Below, in pieces: positions 23,251-58,502 of a stretch of 64,000 bases of DNA. Both the position numbers and the translations under genes were made by a program. The DNA is from Callorhinchus milii. Lineage: Eukaryota. The stretch is from the NCBI RefSeq assembly GCF_018977255.1, contig NW_024704749.1, positions 21,700,001-21,764,000 of the forward strand, given 5' to 3'. How positions within the stretch are numbered: the first letter of the stretch is position 1; every line of letters begins with the position of its first letter. The notes under the pieces were generated by a model. It was given only the letters and a program-made list of their open reading frames with translations, made no database searches and was not told where the DNA came from.

Positions 23251-23545
23251 GAGGCTGTGGCTGTGTGTGTGTGAGGGAGGCCAAGGGTCTGGGTCAGGTC
23301 AGGTAGGAGGAGAGCGTCCGCCCTCTCCCTCTCGCTCTCTGTCTCTCCTCTCCACCGCCACCGTTGCCAGGGAGACGGCGACCGACCGTTGGTCTCCCAG
23401 CCGCCCCCGCGCCCTCGCGCATGCGTGCGTGCGTGTATGTGCGGCGGTTGCTAGGGGAGACGGTTCGCAAGACCCGGGCCGGATTCCAGCACCAGCCCGG
23501 AGCCGGCCCGCTCCCCAGTAACCCACAAACTCCGGACTGGGTAAT
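23251..23545. promoter_or_regulatory. CpG-rich bidirectional promoter AK8/SPACA9 with two RFX X-box-like sites and an NRF1-like site
   Basis: GTTGCCAGGGAGAC 23363-23376 and GTTGCTAGGGGAGAC 23447-23461 (X-box-like); GCGCATGCG 23417-23425 (NRF1-like); dense CpG between divergent genes. Confidence 0.75.
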
Positions 23546-26500: not shown

Positions 26501-27184
26501 CATTTACAAGATGCAACATGTTTTCAAAGTACCTCAGGGGTCCTGACTGTTAAGTGTAGTGCCTGTGCATTTTGCAGGCAAACACACAAGTGCACTCAAA
26601 ATGTTCCAGCATTTACCCCTCAAAGCACACTCTGCGGATCCCCAAAGCCTTGGCTCTTGCCAACCTAATACATTCCGGAATTAGGTAAACAGGATGCGTC
26701 CCTCCAGCGAGAGAAAATGCGCATTCCATTCCAACAATCTATCTCGAGTTGTTAGAATCCACTGCCTGAAAGGCTGGGGGAGGCTGATTCAACAACAGCT
26801 TTCAAAAGGGAATTGGTTAGGCAACTTGAAGAGGAAAGATTTGGAAGGATACGGGGAAAGAGCGGAGGAGTAGGACTGATTGGGTAGCTCTTCCAAAAAG
26901 CCGGCCCAGGCACGATGGGCCGAATGGCCTCCCTCTGTGCCCTAATATTCTAATGATTCTATGATCTCTGGGATTTCCATGTGTAGGTGGGATGCACGGA
27001 ATGCTCATTTGGGTTTGGATACGGTTAGGCACAGTGATGGGTTTCCGCACGTGTCAGACACCCGGGTGGCTGACCAAAATAAATAAATAACTAATTGAGC
27101 ATTTTCTCTAAAAGGGATGGTTTGCGCTCTGTGTGTTGCAGCAAACCCCAACCCCTGTCTGGTCATTGCTCATCTCATGTTACA

Positions 27185-30100
27185 ATGAACGAAGTGAAGG
27201 CCAGTCTGCGGGACCTGGAGCAGCGTTTCATCCTCTTCAGACAGCAGCAGTTCATCTTCATAGCAGCCTTGGACCGCACGCGAGAGAATGCCCACGACAA
27301 GACCCGGCCTGTATCCACCATCGCCCAGGTACACAGTCCGCCACAGCCCAGCATAGCACAGCGCGCCCCCCCACCCCCCCGCTGGCGGGCATGAGGCACA
27401 TGTATCCCATGCAACAACAACAACTTGTATTTATATAGCGCCCCTCACGCAGGGTAGCGTCCCAGGGTGCTTCAAATCGCACGTGGTCTCAAGGCCCCCC
27501 CCCCCCCTCTCTCCCCGACGTCATGAAAACTGATCGAAATCGCCTCCACACCAACCCAAATTAACCTGCAAACAATCCGTTCAGGTCCAGATCCTTGACT
27601 GGGGATGTCCTCCCGACGTGAAAGGCGCTAGATTCATATAACTGGTTGTTGTTGTTGTTTTTCCTGCCACTTTTGAGTCTCCGCAACAACTTACGCAGTG
27701 CCCGTCACTTTAGGGCAGCGTCTAGGAGCGCTGGGTATGGTGGATCGGACGTTGAGCGGGGGAGAAGGATGTGGGGGGCGGGAGGTGACCATTGGTGCGG
27801 TCAAAGAGGTAAAGAGGTAGATTTTAAGGTGGGATTTAAAGATGGAGGGGCAGGGCTAGATGGAGGGGTTGAGGGAGGAAGTTACAGAGTTGAGGAGCGA
27901 GGTACCCGAAGGAGGGGGGCAGGGCACAAGAGGCAAGCACGAGATAGTGGAGCAGAGTGGGGGAGAGCAGAGGAGCAGGACAGGAGAAGATCAGAAACAC
28001 AGGGAGGTGCTGGGATATGAAGGTGATGGTGAGGACTTTGAGATCACTCTGCTGGAGGACAAGGGGATAGTGGAGCCTAGTGAGGACTGGGGTGAGAGGG
28101 GTGAGGGGGGGGAGTGGGGGTGTGGGGAGAGATGTAAATACAAATACAAAAATTACATTTGTGTAGCGCCTTTCACATCGGGAAGATGCTGGACAATCCA
28201 TGTTTCGGACCCGAGTTGGGGACGGGATCGGAAGAGTAGAGGACAGAGGGAGAAGGAGGGTGACTGAAGGCACGGAAGAAGAGGAGGGTCTTGAGAAGGG
28301 TCTTGAAGGTGGCAAGGGAGGGGTGCGTGGCTGAGGGACTGCGGGATGGAGTTCCAGAGGGTGGGGGCAGAGTCGCTGAAGGCCCGATGGCCGATGGTGC
28401 GGGTGAGGTGAGGGGAGTCTGCGGACGATGGCAATGGATTAATCGAGATCCTCATGTTCTTTTTCTCTGCTTAGGTTCAGAATTACCTGGACCATTACTG
28501 TAACAACACCACAGACAGGCGTATCCTCAGCATGTTCCTGGACCTTTGCAGGGACATGAGCCAGTTCTGTGACAAACTGCAAGAGTTAAACCCTTACTCC
28601 TGTTCACCGCACGACGTACTGGAGAAGTGCAAAGTCCTTCTCAGTTGCAACAACGACATGACCAACCTACGAGCCAAGTGAGTAAACAGCATCAACAACA
28701 ACAACAACCATATAGCGCCTTTCGCAATGTAGTGGGTAGATTTCTAGATCAGTATACTCAACCCAACGCCGCTTTGACCCACGACCATGAGTTTGGTGAA
28801 GGTTAAACCCTGTCCTTGATCCACGGTAACTCTTGGTTGCTCCATAGTAAACCAGACCGATGACGACAGAAAAGACTTTGGTGTATATTGTTGGCATTGA
28901 CAATATTGCCAATTCAGAGGAACCTTTCCTTCGTATGAGACGTTAAACCAAGATCCCATCTGTCTGTTCAAGTGGACATTAAAGATCCCATGACACTGAT
29001 CGAAAAGAGACAACATCAACGACAAATTACATTTGTACGGCACCTTTCACGTCAGGAGGATGTCCCAAGGCGCAGGACAGTCAAGGATCTGCACCCGAGC
29101 TGGTGGTTTGGAACACAAGGGGTGGAGGGCGGGGAGGGTAGGGGTAGGAGAGTGACTGAAGGCGTGGTCGAAGAGGAGAGAAGGGAGTTTCTCTCTCCTG
29201 GTATTCTGGCCGACAATCCCCCAAATAAAATTGATCTCTCGCTTCCTGGCTGTTTGCAGGACAGTGCCATGCGCAAGTTGGCTGCAGTGTTTCGCCCACA
29301 TAACACACATTCGATTCACTTTACAGTATATCTCGTGAAGCGCTTTGAGACGTCCTCCCGAGGTTTAAAGGTGCTGTACCAAATGCGAGGAATATAGTCA
29401 TTAGTATTATTATTATTATAAGTTGTTGTAATGGTGCCAGTTGCTGCTACCAGGAAAAAAAAACATGTACAATGGCTTTGTGAGCAAGAGAGAGATGATT
29501 ATGAAGACAAAGAGTTCAGCACTGACACCTTCCACTCTCAATTTGACGGATTTGGGTCTGATTTAACTTTCAGCTCTCCTCAAAAATGCCTAATTTTGCT
29601 CGTTTGGTGACAAACACACAGGCGCGTCTCGGTTGCAAATCCCTGGGAGGCATCGGCTTGTAAAAGACGGGACCTTGAATCTCCTGGTAATTAGACAAAG
29701 ATTATCTCTCAATGAAGTAGCGGTGGTGGCAACCAGTCATTATGGCACTTGTCTGTGAACATCATTGAGCGTTAGGGGACCGGAGCACTGACAGGTGCTG
29801 TCTACGTTGACAGAAACACCCACATTGAGATCCCGAACAGCATATTATTATAAATAACGACACTCACAGAAGCCTCTTGAAGTGGCGCTTACCTTCCAAC
29901 CAGGAATCAAGTTTATTGCCTACATAATATTTTATTATTAAGTACAAATTTATTATTCATTTCCAGTTCATCGCCCTTTTTTCTTTGACAGGGTTATTAA
30001 ACGTAGGTCTGCCGTTTGATTCAGGTGGACATGAAGAGATTACCTCCCTGCCTGTCTCCTCCAACTCCCCGTTCTCCCCCTCCCCTTCTACCCCCCCTCC

Positions 30101-32406
30101 CATCCTGTCATTATTTTCAAAGAAACAGGGAACCTTTCTTCCAGATATCCTGGCTTGTATCACCCTCCTGTATCCCAAGTTTTTTCCCAAATTCAAATTA
30201 ATTGAACACTCCGCCTCATTATTGTTTACAGCACTTTCCTGGTTCAGACTCACAGTTTGCCTAATATCCAAAACATTTGCTTCCATTTTGTAATCGATTT
30301 TGTATTGCGAAGCACTTTGTGGCATCCAATTTGCGCGAGAGAAGTTATTAATATTAACAATAATGCTGTCTGTTCTGCCTCCGCTTTACAGCGCTCTGAG
30401 ATATCCAACGTGAAGGGCCCTATATAAATGCAAGTTGTTGTTGCCTGTTTAGGCGAGTGTTAAAGATCCCTCGGCACTATTCAAAATGATTGTTTCAATC
30501 ACCCCTCAGGTGACATTAGTCACTCCCTTCATAGCTGGTTGTGGGAAATTGCTGAGTGCAAATTGGCTGTCGTGTTTGCCTACAAAATACACAGTCACAA
30601 CATTTTACTGGTGAACCTTGTGAAGCACTTTGAGACGTCTCCCTCAATCCCCCCTTTGCCCCCCTCTCTCCCCTTTTTCAAGTCCCGCCTGAAAACCTTC
30701 CTCCTCACCCAACCCCCAACCCCTGGCTCGGAGTCAGGCTCGGTCACTGAGACTCTGCCCTGCGTGGAGGGCGCTTATATAAGTGCAAGTTGTTGGTGGT
30801 GCTGTCCTCCCGATATCTCAAAAGGATGTCTTCATCAATCGCGGAGAGAGAGGGTGTGGGTTCCGTTTCAATACCCGTGAATTTCCGCGCGTAGTACGTG
30901 GAATTCTCAGACTGGTTTGGAGACCCGTAAGCCCGGTCATGGGTTGGAGTGCGTGCCAGACACCGGGCTGACCAAAACAAAATCAAATGCAAAGGTTACT
31001 CTGAGGAATAACGACGGGCCTGTTTTCCCCTGTGAAGTAGACGCAGCACGTCGTTGCTCTCGTACCAGTATTCTGATTTCATACGCGTTCGGTCTTATTG
31101 TCCCAGTTGCTGTGTGTTCAGCTCCAGCACTCAATCCAGAGCTGTCGGTTTGCCCAATTATTATTATTTATTATTTATTGTTTCCACAGCGTCACCTGCT
31201 GGGGCTTCGTGTCAGTGCACCGTCGTTCCAATTTGGATCGCATTTAACCCAAACCCAAAGTTCAACTTTGTTCCCACCTGTGCGCGCGGAGGGAGGGGGC
31301 AGCGTGAGGTGGGGAAGGGAGCGCTGCACTGTCATGAGTGCCATCGATCGTGTGAGGCATTACATCTGCTGCTGTTAAAATCTGTGAGATTGGGAGTATT
31401 TACAAATATTTTCGAAGAATTTTACAGCACGGAAACAGGACATCTCTCCCCACCAGTCCTTGCTGCTGTTTATACTCCACACGAGTTTCCACCCACTCCT
31501 TACTCCCTCCCTTACCCTTCTATTCCCATCTCCCTCACGTGAAAGTCTAGCTTCCTCTTAAAAGCATCTCTAGTATCCATCGTAATAATAATAATCCTTG
31601 CATTTGATACAGCGCCGTAATCGTCGTTGAGACGTCTCAAAGCGTTTCACAGAATATTCTGTAAAGCGCTCTGGGACGCTACCCGGCGTGAGGGGCGCTA
31701 GGTAAATGCAAGTTGTTGCTGTCGTTAAAGTGAATTCACTGTATGTTGCGTGGGCGCAACACGGCAGCCAATTGCGCACAGCAGTGTCCCACAAACGGTC
31801 GTGGATTGAGGGATTAGTGTTTTTTTGGGGGAAGCGATTATCACCCCCGGAAAAACGATGCGCCAATCAACTAACCACTGGGTTCCCATTTACTGCTAGG
31901 TGAACATCAGCGTGCGTGTGTGTTTGTGTGGCATAAGGAAACTTGCCTAAGGTTTCGCACCGCCCGGGAATCGAACCCGAGTCCTCTCGCTTGCGAGGCG
32001 ATCGCTCTAACCACTACGCTACTGGTACTCAGCGTGGCTGTGTCTTGCCGATTGCAGGTATCCCCATGATGAAGTCAACCACCTGAGCTGCGAGGAGTCC
32101 AAGAACCACTATGGAGCCGTGATCAGCCTCCTGCCCATCGTGCTGGATTACATCAAAGACGGCATTGGCATTATTGAAAGAGCCCAGTACGAAGCTGTGA
32201 GAAATAACAGGTACGCGATGTTTTGCGGAGGGAACCAGCATCCGGTTCAGTCAAAGATCACCGAGGGCCGGCCCCAAAAAATCACTGCTAAGATGCAGAC
32301 GGAAACCTGTGACCCCCGGGAATGGAATATATCCAAGAACCCGAGAGCTCGTCGCGCTTTTTACAAACCACCCTGGAAGCCTGCAGGCCACACCAACGGT
32401 CTGTGA
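27185..32406 (+). CDS. SPACA9: Sperm acrosome-associated protein 9 (C9orf9), complete CDS
   Basis: Exons: 27185-27328 (MNEVKASLRDLEQRFILFRQQQFIFIAALDRTRENAHDKTRPVSTIAQ), 28475-28677 (VQNYLDHYCNNTTDRRILSMFLDLC...NLRAK), 32058-32406 (YPHDEVNHLSCEESKNHYGAVISLLP...KPPWKPAGHTNGL*). Matches recalled human SPACA9 (MNEVKESLR, YPHDVVNHLSC, KPPWRP). GT-AG; AATAAA at about 32636. Confidence 0.96.
31584..32025 (-). mobile_element. SINE, older long subfamily, with an internal L2-tail insert
   Basis: Reverse copy ending about 30 nt before the SPACA9 exon 3 acceptor. Confidence 0.8.
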
Positions 32407-34731
32407 GACCCAACACTCCTTCCCCACTTACCCCATTCCACACCCCCCCCACCTCCCCCCACTCCTCTCCTCTCCTCCTCTCCCTGCTCCACCCTCTCTC
32501 TCCCCTCCCCTTCCCCCTACCTTCCCATCTCTCCCAGGGACATCATCCTGAGAGCCTTCTATTACCATTAATGGACGGTCAATTATAAAGCCATTTGACG
32601 CTCATCAGAATTTGCATCATGTTTCCGAAAACAGAAATAAACCAAAGCAGTTTTCCTACTGTTATGCCACGCAGCCCACATTTTCCTGGCTTTTTTTCCA
32701 AATGAGGTTCTCACAGCAAGAGTTGGTGTCGGTGGCTCTAAGGCTGAGCTAAGCTTCCTCTTTGACCGTGTCTTTGGTCGCCCTCCTACCCCTACCCTCC
32801 ACCGCTCTTGATCGCAACCCTCTGCTCGGGTCCAAATCCCTGACTGTCCTCCTGACTGAAATGCACTCCGTAAATGTCATTTGTTGTTGTTGAGCTCTGC
32901 TAACCAGGTCCACATTGATCTCAGCTCAACGAAAAATAAATAGCGTAAGCAAACCTCCCCTATCCCCCCCTCCCTCCTCTCCCCATCCCTCCCTGCCACA
33001 GCAGGGGAGAGGGTGGGGGTGGGGGGGATTTGGGATCAACTAAAGTTCTTGCAGCCCGATCGCTATCCATTGGGAATGGGGATGTCGGGTCAGGACATGG
33101 CCCTCCATGGCTCAGTGACCGGGCTGAGATGGGAAGGTAGCTGTAGGTTGTTAAGAACACAAGAACATTAGAATTTGCTAAGCGAAAGAAGATCAAGGTC
33201 CATCCCGTTCGCTCTCCACCATCCTGGCAGTCGCTTGTCATGTCCCAAACTATATATTATAAGAACAGAACATTGGTGCTTGAGACCAACGCCCAGCTCA
33301 AGCCACCGCTCCAGGAGAGCAGAGGAGAGGAGAGGAAAGTTTTGTTGAAAGGCATGGCTGCTGTGAAGCTGCCGATGGTGAAATCCTCACGTGCTGTCAT
33401 CCACCTGAACAGGCACAGACGGGACCTCGGTTTAATGTTACATCCGAAGGACGGCATCTCTAACAATGCAACACCCCCCCCAACCCCCCAGCGCTGCATT
33501 GGAGCTTCAGCTTAGACTATGTGATTCTAAATCCCTACTTGGGGCTTGAACTCACAATCTTCTGACTCCTCGCCGAGAGCGCTACTGACTGAACCAGACG
33601 TCCAACACCATTCACTGGCGAGCTCAGCAGCTAGAAAAAGTGATGTAGACAGAGCCAGAGCCAGACTATAAACGTCAAAGGCCAAGGGTCGAGAGGACAG
33701 TGTTGAAGACCGCACTGGGCGGGCAGAAAGGTGGCAGACGTGATCAGTGAGGAGGGCAGGAGACACCTTCGATGACAGCGAGAGGCAGACAGACTGCGAG
33801 ACAGACAGGCTGCAGTACAGACGCCCGGTAAGCTTCACGTTCTTTTCCCTCTTCCCCCTGGCACTGCCCAGGGCACGAAAGCTTTTTGGAAAGCGCCTTG
33901 TATAAATAGTGCCTCAGACAATGTGCTAAAGTCAGTTTGCATCGTTCTAATTTACTTTCTACTCTCTTCCAATATGACCTCTCTCTCTTCCTCGCTCTCT
34001 CTCTCGCGCTCTCTTTCGAGCTCTGATCACTGACGTTTTGTCCTTCTTCCTACAGCTGCCGATGGCTTCTCTACCCAGCTCCACCACCTCCATCTGCCCA
34101 CTAGGACGTGACCTCAACCTTCTCCCCACCCCCCAGGATAATGCTGGGGCAGAGGATTGAGGGTCCAACTGCTCACAACTACCAAACAGCTCCCCACCCC
34201 CTGCACACCGGCTGTGTAGGACTTTCTACCCATCTCCACCACCGCACCAACAGCAAACCATCTCCAGGATTCCGAGCGTCTAACCTGGACGTGTTGTGCG
34301 TGTTTTTGGGTGGGGGTGTGGGCGGGTGGGGGTTCAATGGTGAACAGCTGGAGGTATCCTCTCCCTCCCCACCCCCCCCAGCATGGCTCCCACGTGCAGT
34401 CCTCTTCCCCAGACTCAGCCTCTCAATATATTTTTTGTTCATTGAGAGAATGTACAGCTGTCAATTGGCCAACACAAAAGGTCTTTTGCACTGAATTGTA
34501 AAACTGTTGTGGTGGACACACCTGGACCAGGACACGGGGAGAAAGAAACTCCCTTCGCTTTTTGAATAGCACCCTGAACAAGCAGACGGGACCTCGGTTT
34601 AACATCTCATCCAAAGGATTGCACCTCCGACAATGCAGGGCTCCCCCAACACTGTATTGGACTGCTGTGCACAATTGGCTTCCGAGTTTCACCCACAAAA
34701 TACACAGTCACTCCACTTAAAAGTACATCCT

Positions 34732-35059: not shown

Positions 35060-37484
35060 CCTGTGAAGTGCTTTGACGTAAAAGGCTCGATATCAATTGC
35101 GAGGATATTTATTAGTTCATCTTATTAGTTTAAAATCACCCACGTGAGACTTTAACCCACAACCTTCTGACTCAGACGCCAGAGCAACTGAGCTGGAATG
35201 TGACCTGATATTGTTGTAACAGCTGATAATTACCTGATTCTTTAAGCAAATAAAGGATCTTCATTCTTCTAGCTTATGTCCTCAGTGTATTTGTTTCACC
35301 TATTACTAGTCTTCAGTGAGTGAGTGAGTGAGCGAGTGTTTGATTGAGTTTGAGTCAATGAGTGAGCTGGTGAGCAGGTGTACGTTTTGCTGACGAGATG
35401 GGGCTGGGACTGTTTGACTGCGAGACAGCGGAGATTCTGGAGGGTGCTCACAGTTCAGACTCCATCAATGAGGCTGAAACGTGACAGGCAAAGGACAATG
35501 TGTGTAGGCGAGTGATTGTTGAGTGGCTGAATCACATTGGTTAAATCGCTTGTTTTATTGTGCTGTTCTGTTCCTTTTTCTTTGTGCGGTAACCATTCTC
35601 ATCCTTTGTCAACAAATATACTCTCAATCCTGGTTCCAAAACACCCTGACAAACCTATTCCCTTTTGGAAGAAACGGTTAAACCTCAGACCAAGTTAAGT
35701 TGAAGTTAAGCTGAAGTTAAGGCTCTAATTTCATTATTAATTTGTCTCAAACATGTTGCTCTGTCCTTTCAGTTGGGAATCCTTCACACCAGACTTCAAG
35801 GGTGGTTCGTTCTTTGCCTGTTGAGAGCTGGTTATTGGAAACACTGGCAATGAGCTGATTTTTGGTCAGCCGGGTGTCTGACCCCTGCAGAAACGCAGTC
35901 TCTGAGCTTAAGAGTAACCAAACCAGCCAGCGAGTAACACATACCTAGAGCACTCTACATGTGGAAATGTGACACTGTTAGTGCAAGTTACTGCAGGGCT
36001 CACTCGCATCACATACGGTAAAGGGAATGTAAGGGGAACCCGAAAAAAGAAGTCAAAAATTCATCATCGAATAAAAACACGCAAGCTGACTCTGATCCCC
36101 CTACGCAGCCCTCTCCGCACCATCACCCCCCCACCCCGCCACACTCCCCACACATACACCCACACACCCCACACACCAAGGTTACCGTCTTCAGTTATTT
36201 TCTTCCCAACGGGAATGGGTTTGGATCTTAACCTGTGCATGGCCTTGTGTAGACAGTACTAGGTGTGTAGTAGGATCTTGTGTAAATCCCTAACCTGTAG
36301 CTCCTTCGCTGTGTTACAGATGTGAAATGCAAAGAACAGCATTTTCTAAATGATGGGTGTGTCTAATCTCCATTCCCAGAGTCCCGTCACCGTGTCTTCT
36401 ACTATCAGCTCAAGAAAATTGTTGCCGGTGCTTTACTGTTCTCCTGTTACTTTCCTGGTTTGCCGTTTCCATTAAAGATCTGAAAAAGGCACATGTCCAC
36501 CCCTCGTTCTTTGTCAATCGCTGCACCATCATTTCCTGACCTATATGTCCCGCGTGTAAATTTCCCGTTTTCCCCTCTCCTCTCCCCATCTCCCATCTCC
36601 CAGTCCTAAGCTCTCTCCCTCACCTCCTTTCACAACACGTCTCAAGACCCCTCCTCTTCGACCGCGCCTTCGGTCACCCTCCTACCCCTAGCTGGAGTTA
36701 GATTAGAAGATCAGCCATGATTGAACGGCGAGGCAAGCTCGAAGGGCCGAAAGGCCTACTCCTGCTCCTACATTTATGTTATGTTACCCTCCCTGTCCTC
36801 CACCCCTCCTGATCCCAAGCTGATCTCAGCTCAACAGAAAACATGGAGATATTCACGAACAGCTCAAGCAAGAGGGCGCTGTGTAAATGTAACTTGCTGT
36901 TGTCGTTGCTCGAAGTTTAGACTGGGAGACACTTGTTTCCGAAAATTATAGTCCACACAGCAGATTAATCATTGCCACAACAGTATGTGATGAACCTGAT
37001 GTCATCAGGACAAAAAAAAAGACCACCAAATATATTAAACGACGAAAGATTAGTCAAAAGATCTTTGGTTTTATTTTGACGTGTTTTTCGGTTGCGACAG
37101 AGAATTTAAACAGACCCCACGCCCTCGCCATAAACTCAGAACCTGTTATTTTAATGACAAACTTTCTTAGTTTTTCTTGTGGACTTTTTTAGTTGTTGCA
37201 CAGTAGCATGAGGAACTCACATCAATTGGAAAACTTGTACAATCCCTCGGTCTTACTTCCTAATAATACGCAGGTTATTGCCAAAAAAACACTCGCTGAT
37301 TATTTAGGTGGACCTCCTAGAGGTGACTGTCTATACTTTTTTTTATTTGTGGTGGCTCTATCCGTATTCTCTGATCATCTTACTCTTCACCGAACCAGTC
37401 AGTGGTAACGAGAATCCATCTCTCTCATGACATCGAGGAGTTTGAGGTTTCACTAAATCTTTTTTCTTCTCTTGGGGCTTGGCC

Positions 37485-40400
37485 TCAGCGAGAAGGGCTG
37501 AGCACGAAGTTGTGAGGTGTGGCAGAGTAGTCACTCACAGAGTCTCGCACTTCCACTGTCTGGTTTAAGGGCTTAAAACCCTTTGCTTCAATCTGTAGGA
37601 CAGACAAGAGTACAATGACTGCCTGGGAGCTGGGTAAGTCATGGGAGACACTGCTCTGGATCTGTGATGATTGTTGGCAAATTCAATTTGTTCTGTGTTG
37701 TTTGTTTTGGGTAAATATTTTTGCTCATTAAAGGTGATGCATGTTATCACCAGGGAATGTAAGCCCTTCTCATCTTGATTACACAATGCCACCCCTGCCA
37801 GATAAAACATGTTTAAACCAATGTATAAACACACCTGGAGTGCTTCTCTCTCACACTCATACACAGACCAGGTCTGATTTTATTGCGCTTCATAGCATCA
37901 GAGTCATAATCATTTTTACATTTGATGCAGCGCCTTATCACGTTGTCAAGAAGTCTCAAAGTGCTTCACAGGATATACTGTAAAGTGAGTTGACTGTATA
38001 TTTTGTGGGCGAAATGCGGCAGCCAATTGCGCACAGCAGTGTCCCCCAAACAATTGTGGATTAAGTGACCGAATTATTACGATTATTATAANTTTTTTTT
38101 GAAGGGATTATTACCCCTGGAAAAGACTACTTGCCTCTTACCTGGAACGTGTAATGGCCGGGTAGTAACAGGCGGTAATATTCCCCCAAGGAGTTCGTTT
38201 CATAAGGGTAAATACTGTTCCTCCCCACGAGTTTCACGATTGCATTGGAAATGGGATTTCCCTTCTGATCCAGGACTCTGCCCTTCAGCCCTGCAAAAGG
38301 CAACATTGGTCGTCAATCAAGTTGTTGTCCCGACCTGTCAGCCAACCCACGAGGATAACCCTGACCCTGGAAGACAAAGCTGTAAGACTGAGATATATAC
38401 CTAAGTGAACATGTTTGATTAGCAATAAAAGGGCAGCTCGGTTCTGCTTCCAGTAGACAGGTAGGTGTTTGGCCGCTGGGTATTTGCAACAGGACAGTTC
38501 AATCGTCAGCTCATAACAGTGGCCCCAAACATAATTGTAGTCTTGCATACTGCCTAGGTGAGAGATAGTGAAAACTGTCAGACTGTGGAAGGCGGAAGCC
38601 AGACACTGGGTGATCTCCAAATGCACTCAACAACAGAGGAACATAGGAACACATAGGAACAGGAGGAGGCCCTTTAGCCCCTCGAGTCTGTTCCGCCATT
38701 CTAATAAGATCATGGCGGATCTGTACCTCAACTCCAATTTCCTGCCCTTGTCCCATATCCCTTGATAAACTGACCTGACAGAAATCGATCCACCTCAGTC
38801 TTGGGAATTTGAATGGATTCTTGAGAGGGACAGGCAGGGAGCGGGCAAAAGGGGGAGTCATGGTGGGGGGAGGGGTGGGGGGTGGGGGTTTGACTGATCA
38901 AGGCCACACTGACTGTTACAACTGGTTTAGCTGCTTTACATTACTGGCTCCAGGGCTGAACTCACACCAGCAAACCCCTCCTCTCCCCCCCCCCCCCCCC
39001 CGCCCACCCATTCCCCTATTCCCTCCCTCGGCCCACCCATCTGTGCAGGTGTGTTCAGACCTGACCTACAACCTACTGCCCAGGTGCCTTGCCTTTTACG
39101 ATGTACCATTCGGCTCCATTCGTCACTCCGTCCTGGAATTTCATCTTACAGAAATTCCCTTTGTGCATGATGGAATGGTTAATGGAGTAAACCTTGGCCA
39201 AGGCCTTAAACACGTCATCGTCGGGGCACTCACTGTACCGATTGATACCTGCCAACAGAGAGTGAGAGGAATGGTTAAATGGGCTTCATTCCCAACACTT
39301 CCTCCTCCCCACCCCCAACCCCAGCCCAGCCCCACTTCGCCTCGCCCCCTCCCTTGCCTCCTTCAAGGCCCGTCTCAAAACCTTCCTCCATGTCCAATGT
39401 ATGGTCACCCTCCTATCCCCACCCTCCCTGCGCCCCTCCTGACCCCGACAACTTCCAGCTCAGACGCAAATCCTCGACTGTCCAGCACCTCGGGACGTCC
39501 TCATGAAGTGAAAGGCGCTGTGTAAATGCAATTTGTTGTTGTTGTTGCTGTTGATGGGACCTCGGTTTCAACATGTCACCTGAAGGATGCCAACTCCCAC
39601 ATTGTGGCTCCTCCCATTATTTCCCCTCTCCCCCTGTTGTTGTTGTTGTTGTTGCTCGAATGAACGTTTTTAAATTGTTTCAATCCACAACGTTTCACCT
39701 TCTTCGTTGTTGTCGAACGGATAGGCAGTGAGGATGGCCCCTCCGTGCAAACTGGCCGAGAGGACAAAGGTCTCCCGCCGGATCCAGCTCATGATGGCTT
39801 CCGTTTCCGGCTGGCGGGGGCTGGTGTTGTTTCCGAAAGCGTCGGGGAAATTCCTGTTCAGGTCAACGTGATTCTTGTTATACCTGTAACAGGGAGCGGG
39901 GACAGTGATCTTGGTTCTGCTATAATAATAATGATAATAATAATAATAATCCTTGCATTTGATACAGCGCCTTATCACGTCGTCGAGACATCTCAAAGCG
40001 CTTCACGGGATACACTGTAAAGTGAATTGACTGTGTATTTTGTGGGCGAAACTCGGCAGCCAATTGCGCACAGCAGCGTCCCCACAAACAGTCGTGGGTT
40101 GAGTGACTGATTTATTATTTTTGGAGGGATTGAGAAGGAGGAAGGAAGAAGCAACAACACAAACAAACAATTAAATAGCTAAATAAGTAAAACGAACAAG
40201 ACAAAAAGTCTTATAGTGTCACGATGGGTTATTACCGGCCTAGTTTGCCCCCACACTTGCCGACCACTGACGCCTCAAACCCGTCGGGGTTCATGGAGGG
40301 TAAGATGTGGATCCTCGCGCTGCTGATCAGTTTGGTGATGTTTGTGTCATTTCCGTAACTCGTGACCAGGTAATCGATCAGATGGAGCAGCATCTCTCTG

Positions 40401-41759
40401 CTCACAGCCTGCACGAGACAGAGTGTCAACCTCCGGAAAGAACATGGGCCCCTTTTTTTAATATCCTAGGCTCCTTTGCTCAGCGGGCTCCGACCTGCTC
40501 CATGTCCCCCAACCAGGTGTTGGACATTCAACCTTTCTGCCTCCACTCTTTGGAACTCCATCTCACAGTCCCTTCACCTCGCCCCCTGCCTTATCTCCTT
40601 CAAGGCCCATCTCAAGACCCTCTCTTTAGACCGCTCCCTCGGTCACCCTCCGATCCCTACCCTCCTTTCCTTCCATCCTCCTCATCCAGAGCTTTGGGAC
40701 ACCCTCCCGACGTCAAAAATGTGTGGTTGTTGTTGTGTTGAGGAGATCAAACTCCCGTGGATACCTCACCTCGTTCCCATGGATGTTGCCGATGTATTTC
40801 ACCTCTGGAATGCCGACACGATGGTACTTTGGTGTCTCCCCGATTGCAACGACCCACAGATTCCGTCCTTTGCACAAAAGATCAAATGGACACACACAGC
40901 AGGAGATATTATCTAAGTGCCCTCGTTTACAAGGGTTGGGACACATTACAAAATAAGACAACACTCATAGTAAGAACATAATTAATTGTGCCTAGAGATG
41001 AAATACCCCTTAATAGCTCTTAGACCCAAATATCTCTGCACATTTACTGCTTCCCCTGCATTTTAGTTACAGAAGCCAGTTTGGACGCATTGGCTGGCTC
41101 TGATAAATCCCTGTTATAGACGGTCTATAAGAAACACTAGTCTGATGCCTTCGCTAGACGGGTCTGCAGTACTGCAGGACACTTGCTGAATGACAGATGA
41201 CTTGGTTGCAGACACAGGGAAATGTCCTTGTGTAAGTGCCATACACAGACCTCTCAATCTGGTATGGATACTCTTAAGCATAGTGGTGGGTTTCTGCGTG
41301 TGTCGGACACCCGCTGATCTAACACGTGAGCTATCGTGTTTGCCTACACAAAATATACAGTCAAGTGATTCCTGTAAAGTTGATGTGATAAGGCGTTATC
41401 TATATCAACACAAAGATTATATTAGTAGTGGTTCTAGTACTGAAGAAAATTATTTTTCGCCCACAAAATACACAGTCAATTCACTTCACAGTATATTCTG
41501 TGAAGCACTTTAAGACGTCTCGAAGACTTGATAAGGCGCTATATCAAATGCAAAAATTATTATTATTATTACCTTCTACAGACTTTCCAATACTGTAAAG
41601 GTGGGTAATAGAGGGATAACTTTGATTCACATCACAGAGGAAAGAGTCCAATTTCGCTGTATGATGATAGCTAAAATCCAACCCAGCCCAAGAGTATTGC
41701 AGAAGCAAAGCCAGGACACAAAATACTGTACAATTCCAGTCCTGCAGTGTGGTAGCCAT
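37485..41759 (-). CDS. Carboxypeptidase M-like M14B zinc carboxypeptidase, 402 aa, signal peptide, no GPI tail
   Basis: Exons: 41573-41759, 40770-40867, 40236-40408, 39699-39883, 39093-39248, 38401-38553, 38142-38290, 37485-37592 (1209 nt, in frame). Motifs LDFSYH, IHGNE (Zn ligands), [33 protein letters not shown] (catalytic Glu), plus a transthyretin-like C-domain. Exon boundaries follow recalled CPM structure. PolyA signal at 37070-37075. Symbol withheld because it may be a paralog rather than CPM itself. Confidence 0.93.
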
Positions 41760-42394
41760 CAGCAGGGCAGAAGGATATCAACCTGAAAGAGGCAAGAAAA
41801 ATAATAAATGGTTAAGTTACGCCCTATTTCTCCTCCATCAATCTCTGAAATGCTTTTTAAATGTAAGAACTCCACACGCCTCTGTTTACCCAGCAGTAAG
41901 TAGGGTAAATGATTGGTGGCTCGCTTTCCGGGGGTAATAATCCCTCCAAATTTCTTTTTAAAATGTGTTCACTCAATCCAAGACTGTTTGTGGGACCTGC
42001 TGTGCCAATTGGCTGCCATATTTCGCCCACAAATCACAGTCCCTGCGCTTTACAATACTGTGCATCCCGTGAAGCGCTTTGAGACGTCCTCCCGACATGA
42101 AAGGTTCTACGTCAAATATAAGGATTATTATTATTGTTATAATATGATCATTATTATCGGTAGTAAACATTTTACGATTCCTGAGAGACAAGAGTCACTG
42201 CACAGTGACAAGCCGCGTATCAATCGAAACAAACCTGTGCATTAAATCTCTCTTGGCCCCATGTTTTTACGCTCTTTAAGGCTGGCCAGAGTACGGCGGG
42301 TTAGGAACACATTGTGTGGGATCTCCTCTCTGCTGAGGTCATTCCAGTGAAGGGTTTAAACAAAAAAGGGTTCGGAGACCCTCCGCTCGTTTCC

Positions 42395-43353: not shown

Positions 43354-44274
43354 AAAGGGACGGGGAGCGAGTTGGCTGCGGTACTGGGCACGGTGCCAGT
43401 CCTCAAACAACACACCCGGACACGGAGTAAAGATTGGCACTCCTGCGCAGTCCAATTTTTCTCCATCTAAACGTTGTGTTGTTTGAAACACAGTCAGTCA
43501 GTCCAAGCTCACTTTTCTCTCCTCTCCAACGCAGCGGATGTACTCTGGGTTCAAATCGCTTGTTCTTTATTTCCTTGTTATTTTGACACACTCACACGCA
43601 GTCTCACCCTCAGCTGATCTCCCCTAGATTTCTCTCTCCATCCTCAGAGGCACTCTTTCCACAACGTTGAAACCCAATTTGTCAAACTCCAGTTTGTTGA
43701 ATAGATCTCGGTGATGCATCTATGATTATTTATATTATATATGTGTAATTTATCGATGACTGCTTGTGGGACGCCGCTGTGCGCAATTGCACCCACAAAA
43801 TCCACTTTATAATGTATCCTGCGAAGCGCTTTGAGATGTCTCGACGACGTGATAAGGCTCTATGCCAAATGCAAGGATTATTATTGATTATTATTATCGT
43901 TGCCCTAGATATTGCAAATTCCCTTCTTGTTTAACCTATGAATCCAAAATTTGCAGGTTCCAAATTGAGTTTATCTCGCGGTTATAAAAATGACGACACT
44001 TGTATTTATGTAGCGCGTGGGATAGGTATCTTGGAGCGCTTAAACCTATTAAATAATATATCTTTAAAAATATTTTTTAAAAATATTTATATTGAAGAAT
44101 ATTTAAAAAATCTCTTCATATATAAACTAAATCTCTATTTCTTTCCTGGTTTTGTAGTGTTATGCATCCGATCAAACCAGAGGCCTCCACAAGTCACATC
44201 CAGGTATAAGGGAAAGGGGTGCGAAGGAGATCAGCTTAATCTTGGGGAAAACGTAGGAGAAGAAACATAAGGAG

Positions 44275-47200
44275 ATGGAGACGCAGGTGGAAGCAAGGCA
44301 GAAGGAGGCGGTGGAGAAAAAGAATGAGGAAGAGAAAAAGGAGGATAAAAAAGAGGAAGACGAGAAGGAGGATAAAAGAGAGAAAGAGGAGGATAAAAGG
44401 GAGGAAGAGAAAAAGGAGGATAAAAGAGAGGAAGAGGAAAAGGAGGATAAAAGAGAGGAAGAGGAAAAGGAGGATAAAAGAGAGGAAGAGAAAAAGGAGG
44501 ATAAAAGAGAGGAAGAGGAAAAGGAGGATAAAAGAGAGGAAGAGAAAAAGGAGGATAAAAGAGAGGAAGAGGAAAAGGAGGATAAAAGAGAGGAAGAGAA
44601 ACAAGAGGAAAAAGGAACAGAGGAAGAGGAAAAGGGGAAAGAAAAGGAGGAAGACAGAAACAAGGAGAATAAGCCCCAGAGTCCGGATCAGGTGAGCAGT
44701 CAAGTTGTGTAGTTTATCTCTTCAAGGACATTGAAGTACAGTGCAATCGATCGTACAATAGTACAACGGTGCAGTCCTGTAGCTCAGTGGTTAGCGCACT
44801 CTCCTCGCAAACAAAAGACTTGGGTTCGATTCCCGACAGGACGAAATACTGGGCAAGGTTCCTGTATCAAAAATGCAAAGGCAAGGATCATTATCTGTTG
44901 TGTTTCATGACGAATCCCAGCTGTAGGCGAGGGTGGAGCAACATTCCCTTAAACGTGCCATTTGCAGATCACTCCATGAAGTTTCCTATGGGGGGTGCGT
45001 GTGGTCGATGAGTATTTAAACCGCACCGATTCCATTATTCCCAAAGGCACCCAGCAAGCAATACTAATAATCCTTGCATTTGATACAGCGCCTTATCAAG
45101 TCTTCGAGACATCTCAAAGCGCTTCACTGCAGAGTAAATTGACCGTATATTTTGTGGGCGAAACTCGGCAGCCAATTACGCACAACAGTGTCCCACAAAC
45201 AGTCGTGGATTGAGTGACCAAATTGTTATTATTATTTTTGATTTTTTTTTTTGAAGAGATTATTAGCCCCGGGTAAAGCGATTTGCCAATCGACTGACAA
45301 CCAGGTTCCGACTTACCTCTAAGTAAACAGAGGTGCGCGTGTGTGTGGAGTGAGGAAACTTGCCTAACATTTTGCCCTGTCTGGGAATCAAACCCAGGTC
45401 CTCTCGCTTGCGAGGCGAGTGCTCTAACCACTGAGCTGGAGGACCCCACGATGGATTTGCTCCACTAAAAGTGGACACGTTGTAAAGTCTGATCCCTGCG
45501 TTAAACCGAAACCAAACCTGCGCGATTGGCCGCTCACAAGGACGGTTTCTCCCGCAGCCCGCTGACCCCGTGATGCCGGCTGACCTCTTTCCCAAGCCTG
45601 TGTCGGAGCAACAGCTGGAGGAAGCCTGGAAGGAATCACTGAAAAATCTGTTCGGGTCGAGTCAGATCTTTGAACCGGAAAAGTGCCTGGATCAGAGTTC
45701 CTTCATAAAGTCCACCGTCATCCATGACCAGGCCACGACATAGTGAGTTCATCTGGCAGCCGTTTCCTTTCAAAGAACCGTGTAAAACCAGCTGAACTGA
45801 CGCAGCTTGTGTTCATTTCCCCCCCAGTTACGAGAAGGGTTTGGAGATGTATTCCAGCAGAAAGTTGGACAAAGCGGTGACTCTGTTCAGCAAAGCGATC
45901 AGCCTGCAGCCGGAGAGGGTAAATGTCAGTCCGTCACAACAACAACAACAACTTGCAATTACGCAGCGCCCTTCGCACGAGATAGCTTCCCGGAGCACCT
46001 CACGGTTCACGACCCAAAAAAACGCAGCATCACAGCAATGACCGGCGGGGAGGGAATCGGAGGACGGAAATCATCTTCCCAGACCATTTTGTCTTAGAGT
46101 TTAAGATCTTATTGTGGAGGTCCGTAGCACAGTGGTTAGCGCGCTCGTCTCGCAACCGAGAGGACCTAGGTTTGATTGTCAGGTGCGGCAGAACCTTAGA
46201 CAAGTTTCCTTACTCCACACGCCTCTATTTAACCAGCAGTAAGTAGGAACCCCGTTGTTAGTCGATTGGCTTTTCCGGGGGAAAAAGTTCCTTCAAAAAA
46301 AATGTGGTCACTCAATCCACGAGTGTTTGTGGGACACTGCTGTGCGCAATTGGCTGCCCCCAAAATACACAGTCATTCCGCTTTACAGTATATCCTGTGA
46401 AGCGCTTTGAGACGTCTCGAAGATGAGATCAGGCGCTGTATCAAATGCAAGGATTGTGATTACTATCATTACGACAGTAAAACTCTCACAAATCTGATCC
46501 GTATCAATCGTACAATCGCCCAAGTGGTACATCCGCCGCCCAAGTCAAGAGTTTATATTCGATGCAAGTTCAACAGAACTCATACTTTGACATTAAAAAG
46601 CATTGTCCCGATCGAGACGACTTGCGTGAGGTTTACTGTAAGATATTGTTATGATATTACTGGCTGCAGGTGGAACTGTACGTGAGTCTGGCTGATGCCT
46701 ATCTGCAGTTCTGTGACTTCCAGTCAGCCATCATGAACTACAGGCGAGCATATACCCTGAACCCCGGGAATGAAGAGTTACAGCTACAAGTCGGCTTCAC
46801 CACCTACATCCAAGTGAGTCTCTGCCTTCCTGCAATAAAAACAGAAGTCGCTGGGAACACGCAGCGGGTCAGGCAGCATCTATGGAGAGAGGAAACTGAG
46901 CATTGTAACTCATTTTCCTCTCTCCGTAGATGCTGCCTGACCCGCTGCGTGTTCCCGGCGACTTCTGTTTTTATTTCAGATTTCCAGCGTCAGCAGTATT
47001 TTGCCCCTCTGCCTTCTGTATGTAAGATACTCGCTCTTAAGAGAATAACCATAACAACAGCATCCCCATTATTGTAACGTGCGAACTATATGTTTCTTCC
47101 ACAAAATACACAGTCACTCCACTTTAAAGCTATATTCTGTGAAGCGCTTCAAGACGTCCCGAAGACGTGATATATCAAATGAAAGGATTATTATTATTAT

Positions 47201-50200
47201 TATTATTATTATAGATGAACCTTGGTCTTTTTTTGTCCAGCAATTCCTTCGTTCATTCCTTACTTCCTCTCTTTTTTTCTTCCATTTCTTCTTTCCTTTG
47301 CTTTCTTCTCTCCCTTTCTCCCTCGAGTCAGTAACAAGAGTGAGTGTCTATTGGCCCTGTATCCCTGTGTCTGACTCCGTCGCTCTCCCTCTCTCTCTCT
47401 CTCTAGGGCCAGTGCCTGTTTGAAATGCAGATGTACAGTGAAGCTTTAGGAGCTTTCACAGAAGCGTCGGAGTTGTGTCCAGAAAACCAAGGATACCAAG
47501 TGAGAAGGTGACTGACCTGTTGCTGCTGCTGCAACTGTGCGGAGTGCGGCTGAGAAGTACAACCGCCAACACCCACGTGAACGTGATACAATGACCAAGT
47601 TACCTGGCCTGACATTTTTATCGCACCTCGTCACCTTGAAACATCTCAACGTGTTTTTGCCGTCATCGCCCCCAGTGAAGTGCCGCGACTGCGTGCGCGC
47701 AGGCAAACGCGGCAGGCAATTTGAGCGTGAGGGGCGCCCTGTGTGAGGGGCTCTGTAGAAGTGAAGGTTGTTGTTGTTGAGCACTGCAAGATTACCACTA
47801 ATTGCTGGGAACGTGCAGCAGGTTGGGCAGCATCTATGGAGGGAGGAAAATGAGTTAATACTCATTTTCCTCTTTCCGGAGATGCTCTCTGACCTTCAAG
47901 ATTCGGTCAGGACACCTGGAGAGAGAAACTAACCCTTCTCGTTTGCAATAGCCCAGCTAGGATTGTTATTGTCGCTTTGCTTTTGACGCTAAGCTCACCC
48001 TGTACAGGAAACAATGTAAAATAAGTTCTAGATCCTGGTCCTCACCTTCAAAGCCCTCCATGGCCTTGCTCCCCCCTACCTCTGCGACCTCCTAACCCCC
48101 TACCAATCTGCTCGCTCCCTCCGCTCAGCAGGCTCCGGCCTGCTTCATGTCCCCCGCTTCGCCCACCCCACCATTGGCCTTCAGCCACTCTGCCCCCACT
48201 CTCTTGAACTCCAACCCACAGTCCCTCCATCTCGCCCCCTCCCTTGCTTCCTTCAAGACCCATCTCAAGACCCTCCTCTTCGACCGTGCCTCTGATCACC
48301 CTCCTTCACCCCCTGCCCTCCACTCTCCCTGCTCCCGACCCCCAGTTTGGATCCGAAACACTGATTGTCCAGCGCCTTAGGATGTCCTCCTGATGTGAAA
48401 GGCGCTATACAAATATAATTTTGTCGGTGTTGTAAAATAAGAGTCCTCCACTTTATAGGATTGTCTGCCTGGCTGCGCTGGGGAGATTCAAGGAGGCCCT
48501 GCAGGTGGCGAACAAGTTGGTCATGGTCCAGAAGAATAACCCAGAGCTCTACATCCTGAGGGCCAGGATACACGATCACTTTGGCAACGTGAGTCTCTTT
48601 TGTTCCGTAGCATGGTGGTTAGCACGCTAGGCTCGCAAGCGAGAGGACCCGGGTTCGATGCTCCTCACGCTTCTGGTTGACCGTTAGTTAGTAGGAACCC
48701 GGTTGTTAGTCGATTGGCGTATCGCTCTCCAGAAAAAAATATTCCTCAAAAACCAATTGGTCACTCAGTCCACGACTGTGTGTGGGACACTGCTGTGTAC
48801 AATTGGCTGCCGTGTTTCGCCCCCACAATACACAGTCACTCCATTTACAAGATATACTGTGAAGCGCTTTGAGATGTCTCAACAACGTGATAAGGGGCTA
48901 CGTCAAATGCAAGGATTATTATTGTATTGTTATTATAAACCATAACAAGGGCCACCAACTCTTTCACACTGTGGTAACTCTCCTTAACATTTGCACAGAA
49001 TTGTGGAATTTTGAGGTCTCTATTAACATCGACTTTGTTAACTGTGTTAACATGAATCGGGTCTCTTTAGGAAGCAGAACAGTGGTATTTTTCATGTCCT
49101 TATTGACGTGTTTTTTTCCCTGGCTAATAGTTAGCCCTCTGTAACAGCGATATCACCGCGGCCTTGGCGATGGATCCCACCTGTCTAGGGGCACTTTCCC
49201 TCAAGTCCAGACTGGGGGAACGGGCTGAAGAGGCCAAGGCACAGGCAGTGAACAGCGCTCTGAGAGGTCAAATGAAAGAGGCAATGCAGAAGATCAACAA
49301 GGCTTTAGAAAATAACCCCAATGAAGCCAACTACTATATCCTCAGGTACCGCAGTCACAGGCTGGGCGCAACTCAACAACAACAACAGCAGATTACATTT
49401 GCATAGCGCCTCTCCTTTAATTCTTTTTTGGGGTGTGATTCTCCATGTGTTTGTGCCTTGATGACCTCACCATCATCAAGGCGCTGGACAGTCAAGGATT
49501 TGCACCTGAGCTGAAGATTGGGATCGGGAGGGGTGGAGGGCAGGGAGGGTGGGGGTAGGAGGGTGACCGAAGTCACGTTTGGTCGAAGAGGAGGGTTTTG
49601 AGACGGGCCTTGAAAGAGGCGAGGGAGGGAGCGAGGCGAAGGGACTGTGGGATGGAGTTCCAAAGAGCGTGGGGGCAGAGCGGTTGAAGGTTCGAGGATG
49701 GGCTGGGCGGGGGACATGGTGCAGGCCGGAACCTGCTGAGCGGAGCGAACGAACAGGTCGATATGAACGAGTTTACGATTGGGAGGAACATTGTGCTCCC
49801 AGGATTGGGTTGTTGTTATTTTTTTTAAGAAACCCTACTGCACGTTTGTCTTCATTTTATTGACTTCTTCGATCTCCAGAGGAACCCTGTACAGGAAACT
49901 CAAGGAATTCAACGCGGCCATCGACGACTATCTCTTCGCCCTGGACAAGGTCAACTACAACGACCAGAGCCAAATCTTCGGGGAGGCTCAGGGGCAGCTG
50001 CTGCTCACCTACAATGACTTTGCCGTGTACTGCTACCAAAGAGGGTTTTATGAAGAGGCCATCCTCCTCCTGAACCAGGCCATCAGGGGAGAGAAGCAAC
50101 AGAAAGGCCTGTACATTAACCGGGGAGGTAAGCACTGCACAGAGCACTTGCTGCGCAGGTGACTACTGTCTGGCATCGAGACTGTTTCATAGCCAATAAT

Positions 50201-55011: not shown

Positions 55012-55993
55012 CAAGGGTTTAGTCAAGCCCTCGCGCCTCTTTCTCTCTCTCTCTCTCGCTCACAGCTAATAAAGTTTACTTAACAAGGACTAAGTTTATC
55101 CAGGTGAAATCTATGCATCACAGGCTTTGCCGCAGTGTGTACTGTGGACCCGCAGTGTGGTCAGTAAACCCTTTGAAGTGCTTTGAGACGCGCTCCCAAT
55201 GCAGAAGATGCTGTATCAGATAATAAGGATGCTTGCATTTGATGTAGTGCCTTATCACGTCTTCGAGATGTCTCAAAGCGCTTCACAGGACACACTATAA
55301 AGCGAATTGACTGTATATTTTGTGGGCGAAACCCGGCAGCCACAGCAGCATCCTAAACAGTTGTGGATTGAGTGACCAAATTATTATTATTAATTTTTTT
55401 GTGCAAGGTTTACAATAATCCTTGTATCTGAATCATCACTCAGACGCACTGCAGACCTGATGTATCGCAGAGACCAGTAGCGGGAGTTAAGAGAAACCAT
55501 AGTAATTTACAGCACAGAAGAAGGCCACTCAGTCCCTCATGTATGTGCCGTCTCGTTTAAAGAGCGCTCCTTTTCAGTCCCATTTACCTGCCCCTTTCCT
55601 CCCCCCCCACCGCCCTCAACACCCCGCACACCACACCACACAGATCCCTTGATGTACGGAAGAAAGTCCATCCTGACAATGTCATTGCCATTTGCCATAT
55701 ATTTATGAAACGATATTTATAAAGATTTACAAATCACTATTTATAAAAAAATTCATATTACAAAGACACGGTGCGAGAAAGATGTTGTTTCTTCCCCGTT
55801 TCAAGTTACCGTCAGTTTGGTTGGGTCCCTCACTCCCTACTCAAACCCCCACTTTCTCTTCCTCACTCACTCTCCCTCTCTCTCTCTCTCTCTCCCTCTC
55901 TCGCTCTTCCTCCCGCCAGCCCGCGCTCCAAACAAAACCACTATTGCATTTCGACACGTACGAAACTCGCTCATGGGAACGGTCGTTTCACGT

Positions 55994-58502
<2,509 letters not shown>

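Follow-up and report, generated by a model that had tools for sequence, protein, structure and literature searches.

Does the carboxypeptidase M (CPM)-like gene on the minus strand at 37485-41759 of a 64,000-nucleotide stretch of the Callorhinchus milii genome (RefSeq assembly GCF_018977255.1, contig NW_024704749.1, positions 21,700,001 to 21,764,000 of the forward strand; the whole stretch is called the window below) encode a CPM with a broken end, or an anchor-free enzyme in its own right? Canonical CPM acts at the cell surface. To judge from its sequence, the chimaera gene belongs to the CPM branch of the M14B peptidases, as a paralogue of jawed vertebrates and not as a new subfamily, and its product is predicted to be a soluble secreted zinc enzyme, active without a prodomain, that trims C-terminal Arg or Lys from extracellular peptides at a distance from the cell surface; we give this reading a probability of roughly 0.75. 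It builds on direct observations, namely the gene structure, the splicing of the last exon, traced as far as the stop, the intact catalytic residues, the conserved short end, and the separate clade.

Translated by coordinates, the gene comprises eight coding exons (1209 nucleotides) that encode 402 residues, closed by a single TGA at 37487-37485 and with no stop inside the frame. An in-frame stop lies seven codons upstream of the ATG at 41759, within the ATG-bearing exon, and this ATG is therefore the start; the exon is preceded by an acceptor, and a non-coding exon further upstream is implied. The translation is fully identical to NCBI XP_007900933.1 (P0001), the one protein returned by a search with exon 7, which is named only "carboxypeptidase M-like [Callorhinchus milii]". 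Six of the seven introns are GT-AG, and intron 5 has a GC donor. Transcript evidence was drawn from the contigs of four runs (X1-X4) in two studies, out of 12 runs listed, whose RNA status was guessed and three of which contain spliced contigs. Joints and pieces are cited from among those listed; repeats dominate, with 620 joints and 115,296 pieces beyond these. The parts of the gene are as follows.

41573..41782, minus strand: ATG-bearing exon, coding from 41759 to 41573 (residues 1-62), acceptor before 41782; junction to exon 2 in contig X2 record 14
41685..41759, minus strand: predicted signal peptide, residues 1-25 (hydropathy 2.95; alignment to mature human CPM from residue 27)
40770..40867, minus strand: coding exon 2, with zinc ligands His92 and Glu95
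40236..40408, minus strand: coding exon 3, from translation
39699..39883, minus strand: coding exon 4, with Arg153, Asn162, Arg163, zinc ligand His199, and pocket residues Ala206 (CPA 203) and Asp210 (CPA 207)
39093..39248, minus strand: coding exon 5, with Tyr263 (CPA 248), then the GC-AG intron; the NCBI model agrees, and the junction is not among the contig pieces listed
38401..38553, minus strand: coding exon 6, with Ser268 (CPA 253), Gln270 (CPA 255) and catalytic Glu285 (CPA 270); no contig cover in its bin
38142..38290, minus strand: coding exon 7, start of the transthyretin-like domain; spliced contigs X3 record 20 and X4 record 27
37485..37592, minus strand: last coding exon, which finishes the transthyretin-like domain and then stops, without stalk or hydrophobic GPI signal
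37533..37538, minus strand: internal GTGAGT inside conserved coding sequence, unspliced in the contig covering the site
37070..37484, minus strand: 3' untranslated region; AATAAA sites at 37347 and 37075-37070, contig cover over 37126-37538 (X1 records 7 and 8; X2 record 12)

The last exon, as drawn in an earlier reading made from the letters alone (the sequence-only reading), is borne out by contig X3 record 20, which contains the exact exon 7-8 junction (38142 to 37592) and runs on to 37483 through the GTGAGT and the stop. Contig X4 record 27 departs exon 7 at the same position, 38142, and the depth seen in the last-exon bin is what the remaining 72 letters of this contig would give (72 x 8.2 / 267 = 2.21), the 72-letter piece itself lying outside those listed. 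The exon 1-2 junction was likewise seen (X2 record 14). The junctions between exons 2-3, 3-4, 4-5, 5-6 and 6-7 fall outside the listed pieces and exon 6 is uncovered, which has no bearing either way. Polyadenylation-type signals comprise the two AATAAA sites and an ATTAAA at 37155; the X1 and X2 contigs in the 3' untranslated region extend beyond the first AATAAA, which is consistent with, but not proof of, use of the 37075-37070 signal. As a separate observation, contig X2 record 13 (depth 2.67) joins the end of exon 3 (40236) to the acceptor of the ATG-bearing exon (41782), an exact back-splice on the minus strand as might come from a circular RNA of exons 1-3; this is a single contig and could be an artefact. 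The GC donor belongs to intron 5 at window positions 38554-39092, and the orthologue models P0346 and P0355 stop at the point of this intron; the unusual donor may be common to the orthologues and mislead annotation.

The protein carries every motif that the sequence-only reading had listed as intact: HGNE at 92-95, NRNF within DLNRNF at 160-165, LHGG at 198-201, and ELSCCKYP at 285-292. The zinc ligands His92, Glu95 and His199 correspond to His69, Glu72 and His196 of M14B; Arg153, Asn162, Arg163, Tyr263 and Glu285, aligned with human CPM and CPD domain II, correspond to Arg127, Asn144, Arg145, Tyr248 and Glu270; and the S1' pocket residues Asp207 and Gln255 are kept as Asp210 and Gln270. The hydrophobic N-terminal stretch is also present, with a Kyte-Doolittle 11-residue maximum of 2.95 at residue 10, and hydropathy and alignment together predict a signal peptide cleaved after Ala25 by the small-residue -3/-1 rule. 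Pfam places Peptidase_M14 (PF00246) at 39-306 (E 1.2e-74) and CarboxypepD_reg (PF13620) at 319-384. An N-terminal prodomain is absent, the alignment to mature human CPM beginning at residue 27 and the fold match extending over 382 columns. The search of PDB sequences gave 18 matches, with human CPM at the top (462.6 bits, E 1.2e-137), followed by duck CPD domain II (397), the short fly CPD (320.6) and CPN (309.8). An AlphaFold2 model, built from a 98-sequence alignment, reaches a mean predicted local distance difference test score (pLDDT) of 95.7, with 98 for residues 391-400, and its best fold match is again human CPM (template modelling (TM) score 0.91, root-mean-square deviation 1.6). Given these domain, sequence and fold matches, the chimaera protein consists of a single full M14B unit and closes with the transthyretin-like domain.

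Where, then, is the anchor? Four residues follow the last strand of the transthyretin-like domain, compared with 49 in three aligned mammalian CPMs, in keeping with the earlier statements that the protein closes directly after this domain and that mammalian CPM continues for about 45 residues. The highest Kyte-Doolittle value in the last 30 windows is only 0.06, and from hydropathy and alignment the 402-residue protein is predicted to have no GPI signal. Beyond the TGA the read-through frame is polar and closes after 19 codons, as had been noted, and no hydrophobic tail was found past the stop in any of the three frames, all of which are polar; stop read-through and a frameshifted tail remnant were ruled out on these grounds.

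The same short end recurs in other species. A full-length search (best 120 of 1907 listed) returned shark and ray "CPM-like" proteins first, at 63-67% identity, then sturgeon at 59%; in the same list the canonical CPMs, including that of Callorhinchus itself (P0054), are 52-59% identical to the chimaera paralogue. A profile search (best 120 of 1478 listed) brought in frogs and another salamander, and further species and isoforms came from cluster look-ups. By two-profile scoring, 54 of 372 proteins favour the tail-less group by more than 27 bits. No teleost or amniote was found among the clade-scoring proteins of these 372, each of the two homologue searches having listed its best 120 hits; loss in both groups is not shown thereby, nor is absence from Xenopus, gar, bichir, coelacanth or lungfish. 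A search of 50%-identity representatives, which returned mostly multi-domain CPD, gave no further clade members by profile score, and an ESM Atlas look-up with a frog orthologue gave general M14B clusters only.

Thirty orthologues, one per species, were aligned (1 chimaera, 18 sharks and rays, 4 sturgeons, 2 salamanders, 5 frogs). The other 24 sequences, which are isoforms, fragments and fused models, were set aside; none of them ends in a hydrophobic tail. In every one of the 30, the chain continues for 2-24 residues past the aligned last strand, and its end is not hydrophobic. The comparison set of 27 sequences from across vertebrates (26 canonical CPMs and a lamprey sequence) differs in this respect, 26 of its members having 37-55 residues after the last strand, with hydropathy of 2.2-3.8; the sole tail-less member is a coelacanth model without a start Met. 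Outside the clade, the matches listed include three more tail-less entries: a snake model, a caecilian isoform, and an assembly protein. The sequence-only reading had stated that it would be refuted by fish CPMs that routinely lack the tail; fish canonical CPMs keep it, so that this check favours the reading. Tail loss thus appears, across the sequences aligned, to be old and fixed in a separate gene across jawed vertebrates.

These data bear on two further explanations of the short end. In the first, it would reflect a recent nonsense mutation, a fault in the assembly or the decay of a pseudogene, as might be suspected from the low contig depth, from an N in the assembly at 38092, and from a second database model of the gene (P0323, 437 residues) with a different last exon. 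Orthologues from shark to frog nevertheless end at the equivalent place, the frame and all catalytic residues of the chimaera gene are intact, and contigs match the stop region. Model P0323 was rejected: it continues into intron 7, lacks the end of the domain, and is likewise not hydrophobic. An artefact or recent break is thus largely refuted and, to our minds, scarcely credible, in line with the earlier view that this is no recent nonsense truncation.

In the second, a minor transcript would add a GPI signal by way of the internal GTGAGT or a downstream exon, so that an anchored form is made as well. The hexamer (37538-37533), one of 20 on the minus strand of the window, matches six of nine donor-consensus positions, the true donors of the gene matching six to eight. 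C-terminal switching does occur in the family, canonical chimaera CPM being on record with three different C-termini that branch from a single point (one form of 442 residues, hydrophobic, and two polar forms of 417 and 416); moreover, a short hydrophobic frame in the right phase begins at 35526, the bin near 35500 is slightly covered by X2 and X3 contigs, and the contig joint tables are listed only in part. Against this, the spliced contig that covers the GTGAGT, the site singled out by the sequence-only reading, reads through it to the stop. Splicing there would remove residues 386-402, which include a confidently modelled strand and, in 11 members, an invariant Ala391 and nearly invariant Tyr389, Phe396 and Leu398. 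Hydrophobic tail ends number 0 among the 54 clade-like sequences, isoforms included, and hydrophobic frame ends are common by chance (32 in 11.5 kb). We regard such an anchored by-product as very improbable and return to the anchor-free paralogue.

Two observations concern the database records of the clade. Pelobates cultripes P0121 (823 residues, named CPD-like) holds two near-identical copies of the paralogue fused around a peptidyl-tRNA hydrolase domain, and is likely a mis-joined model over a local duplication. NCBI names the tail-less members of skate and catshark (P0005, P0007) plain "carboxypeptidase M" and the catshark canonical CPM (P0096) "CPM-like", i.e., swapped with respect to the tree.

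That tree (60 rows, IQ-TREE, LG+C20+F+G4) places 16 tail-less sequences in a clade supported at 100/99, apart from canonical CPM, and the branching within it follows the species tree, with chimaera plus sharks and rays at 100/97 and sturgeon plus amphibians at 96/87. The CPM-type group of 45 rows is supported at 97/91 against the CPD domains; lamprey CPM and a multi-domain shark protein lie outside both CPM clades, their placement not resolved. Approximately unbiased (AU) tests on a 25-row subset rejected two groupings: a sister pair formed by the two chimaera genes (p 6e-31), and a single clade holding every cartilaginous-fish sequence (p 0.003). Duplication within the chimaera lineage alone, or within cartilaginous fishes alone, is accordingly rejected, and the event predates the split of cartilaginous and bony fishes. 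Since the lamprey sequence keeps a hydrophobic tail, loss of the tail in the paralogue copy is the simplest reading.

The chimaera also possesses a canonical CPM (P0054) that has a hydrophobic tail, is 55% identical to the paralogue, groups with canonical CPM and lies on another contig; the contigs measure 24.7 and 69.3 Mb, so the two genes are not a tandem pair. The existence of this separate tailed gene, together with the 30 of 30 tail-less orthologues, identifies the gene as a paralogue and not a truncated CPM. Read as a CPM orthologue, it fails in three features: (i) it has no stalk or GPI signal, (ii) it falls outside the canonical CPM group, and (iii) it has Ala206 in place of Ser at position 203. 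It is nonetheless closer to CPM than to CPD or CPN by sequence and fold scores. The earlier designation as a CPM paralogue therefore stands, on the clade support and the second chimaera gene; "possibly an undescribed subfamily" stands in that the clade is paralogous and we found no published description, but is overstated in that the clade lies within the CPM branch of M14B. The records P0358, P0359, P0360 and P0092 comprise tail-less isoforms of canonical Callorhinchus CPM and an assembly protein that groups with it and likewise has no hydrophobic tail. Carcharodon P0145 (714 residues) contains two tandem CPM-type domains outside both CPM clades, weakly with lamprey CPM (93/79), and possibly represents a third, multi-domain CPM-like lineage.

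What the enzyme would cut depends on its pocket. According to PMC5683605, basic specificity is set by Asp207 and Gln255, and the residue at 203 is Ser in the Arg-preferring CPM, CPZ and CPD domain I, and Asn in the group of CPE, CPN and CPD domain II; the spacing given there for CPD domain II (His671, Asn678, Asp682; Tyr740, Gln747, Glu762) maps exactly onto His199, Ala206, Asp210; Tyr263, Gln270, Glu285 of the chimaera protein. Across the clade, Asp207 and Gln255 are each kept in 23 of 23 fish members, and the zinc ligands and Glu270 in 29 of the 30 orthologues. Position 203, Ser in all 27 comparison sequences, is Ala in 23/23 fishes and Val in 7/7 amphibians, and position 207 is Ser in 7/7 amphibians (P0026, P0169, P0107, P0168, P0172, P0175 and P0351), in which the zinc ligands and Glu270 are intact. 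Position 253, which we take to line the pocket, is Gly throughout the comparison set (27/27), in the 18 sharks and rays and in both salamanders, Ser in the chimaera and 4 sturgeons, and Cys in 5 frogs. The Ala at 203 in fishes and the Ser207 in amphibians are new observations. In addition, frog members have Ala or Ser in place of Gly at query position 259.

We thus predict that the chimaera enzyme is still a basic carboxypeptidase, its pocket having been retuned. It could be argued instead that the enzyme is secreted but that Ala203 and Ser253 have already moved its preference off basic residues: Ala occupies position 203 in all 23 fish members where canonical and lamprey CPMs have Ser (27/27) and CPD domain II has Asn, the chimaera and 4 sturgeons have Ser at 253 against Gly in 27/27 comparison CPMs, and loss of Asp207 is tolerated in the clade (7/7 amphibians). 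Position 203 is, moreover, tied to Arg/Lys selectivity in PMC5683605. The same source names as basic-specificity determinants Asp207 and Gln255, which 23/23 fish members keep, and Gly253 is kept in 18/18 shark and ray sequences. We consider so early a shift unlikely, and hold to the basic carboxypeptidase for the chimaera. The pocket preference has probably changed in amphibians, whose enzymes are predicted to be without basic preference; the earlier assignment as a basic carboxypeptidase can therefore be retained for the chimaera, which keeps Asp207 and Gln255, but presumably not for the seven amphibian orthologues with Ser207.

We propose that an N-terminal signal would direct the chain into the endoplasmic reticulum and then be cleaved, and that the folded catalytic and transthyretin-like unit, having no GPI signal, transmembrane segment or KDEL-type end, would be released. 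Lacking a prodomain, it would need no proteolytic activation. Zinc would be bound by His92, Glu95 and His199, the substrate carboxylate held by Arg163 and Tyr263, Glu285 would serve as general base, and Asp210 together with Gln270 would select for a basic C-terminal residue. The Arg/Lys preference would be altered, relative to CPM, by Ala at 203 and Ser at 253. Historically, an anchored ancestor, still tailed in lamprey, would have duplicated before the cartilaginous/bony fish split; one copy would have dropped its tail-coding end, and its amphibian descendant would later have lost Asp207.

Absence of a GPI anchor could still leave the enzyme held at the surface or in a complex, by an uncleaved signal, by matrix polysaccharides as in CPZ, or by a carrier subunit as in CPN1. 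The chimaera core is more basic (isoelectric point (pI) 8.1) than that of chimaera canonical CPM (5.1), several amphibian members have Lys/Arg-rich C-terminal stretches, and secreted CPZ binds matrix via heparin affinity (PMC7698808). The hydrophobic stretch of about 12 residues is, however, short for a membrane span and would lead into a cleavage pattern of small residues, the clade shows no conservation of pI (5.7-8.8 among 10 members), and the chimaera protein has no C-terminal extension for binding. Retention of this kind, which overlaps in part with a shift of specificity, strikes us as rather improbable, and free release remains the preferred reading.

Several points weigh against that reading, or against the uniqueness of the gene. 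Secretion, signal cleavage, activity and substrates are all predictions. Basic specificity is not certain, because Ala206 and Ser268 differ from every canonical CPM compared. RNA support is thin, with contig depths of 2.3-8.2 from runs of unknown tissue and guessed RNA status, and a rare tailed splice form would be missed because repeats swamp the contig tables. Most orthologues are known as gene models; that of Acipenser sinensis has Arg at the first zinc ligand (1/30 orthologues), and the Pleurodeles model, with its aberrant last exon, is weak evidence. The canonical CPM group is supported at only 90/91, in a tree that leaves out vertebrate CPE, CPN and CPZ. Finally, canonical chimaera CPM has tail-less isoform records of its own, one of them NP_001279591.1 (417 residues), and because of such records and the known secreted M14B enzymes an anchor-free CPM-type unit is not a new architecture.

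Pfam matches place the following neighbours around the gene.

21551-34160, downstream of the paralogue: SPACA9 (PF15120) on the plus strand, head to head with a minus-strand gene with a weak Dpy-30 motif
45486-58539, upstream of the paralogue: a tetratricopeptide-repeat gene and a torsin gene

We take the Dpy-30-motif neighbour to be AK8 and the tetratricopeptide-repeat neighbour to be TTC16, and assume that TTC16, TOR2A, PTRH1, SPACA9 and AK8 lie at human 9q34 and human CPM at 12q15. If these gene names are right, the frog and chimaera genes share a neighbourhood distinct from that of canonical CPM. A purine-rich tandem repeat of about 540 bases (window 44172-44721), open in several frames, lies between the paralogue and the tetratricopeptide-repeat gene.

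No published description of an anchor-free CPM paralogue was found in the open-access literature. Duplications of M14 genes in vertebrates are treated in PMC9925722, which, in the portion at hand, discusses AEBP1, CPXM1, CPZ and CPO and has most other genes duplicated in 1-10 species; "CPM" does not occur in its text or in two supplementary files searched, and its figures may count this gene. The gene itself is thus known by automatic annotation, while it does not seem to have been described as a conserved, anchor-free paralogue whose pocket has changed. Tentatively, and with less conviction than for the chimaera enzyme, we suggest that it is an overlooked vertebrate M14B gene, "CPM2", with a secreted and anchor-free product. 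On this view cartilaginous fishes, sturgeons and amphibians would have retained the gene for more than 400 million years, while teleosts and amniotes would be without it. Its pocket would have drifted step by step, with Ala203 in fishes, Val203 and Ser207 in amphibians, and Cys253 in the frogs among them, such that the amphibian enzymes might be the first active vertebrate N/E carboxypeptidases preferring neutral over basic C-terminal residues. The gene adds to the vertebrate M14B peptide-trimming set a member hidden as "CPM-like" or, in skate and catshark, as "CPM", which confuses orthology. The chimaera gene pair is a natural test of the role of the GPI anchor in CPM, the same fold being tethered or free, and the orthologue series offers ready pocket variants (Ser/Ala/Val at 203; Asp/Ser at 207) for the Asp207 rule of basic specificity. 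Its importance is confined to enzyme evolution and comparative physiology, since soluble enzymes of the M14B type are already known.

Of the known systems, CPM (human, PDB 1uwy; Callorhinchus P0054) is the closest in sequence and fold, sharing with the paralogue the signal, the catalytic and transthyretin-like domains, the lack of a prodomain, the zinc ligands, Glu270, Asp207, Gln255 and the SCCK motif. The paralogue differs in lacking the stalk and the hydrophobic GPI signal, in carrying Ala at 203 (Ser in CPM) and Ser at 253 (Gly in CPM), in its 55% identity to chimaera CPM, and in its clade and contig. CPD is a multi-domain gene whose short, soluble form in the fly is a splice product. The Drosophila isoform 1B short (PDB 3mn8) and duck CPD domain II (1qmu, 1h8l) resemble the paralogue as two-domain units (TM 0.89-0.90), and the fly isoform likewise ends after this unit, but identity is only 42-49%, CPD domain II has Asn at 203, and in the chimaera the whole gene is the short unit. 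CPN and CPE are secreted enzymes that cut basic residues. Together with CPZ, a secreted M14B enzyme (PMC7698808), the CPN catalytic chain (PDB 2nsm) and CPE are M14B members without a GPI anchor that cut basic residues, and the paralogue is predicted to work likewise; it differs from CPN in score (309.8 versus 462.6 bits for CPM) and identity (42%), and from all three in lacking a frizzled domain or C-terminal extension. The tail-less isoforms of canonical Callorhinchus CPM, lastly, are alternative ends of a tailed gene, whereas in the paralogue the loss appears fixed in a gene of its own.

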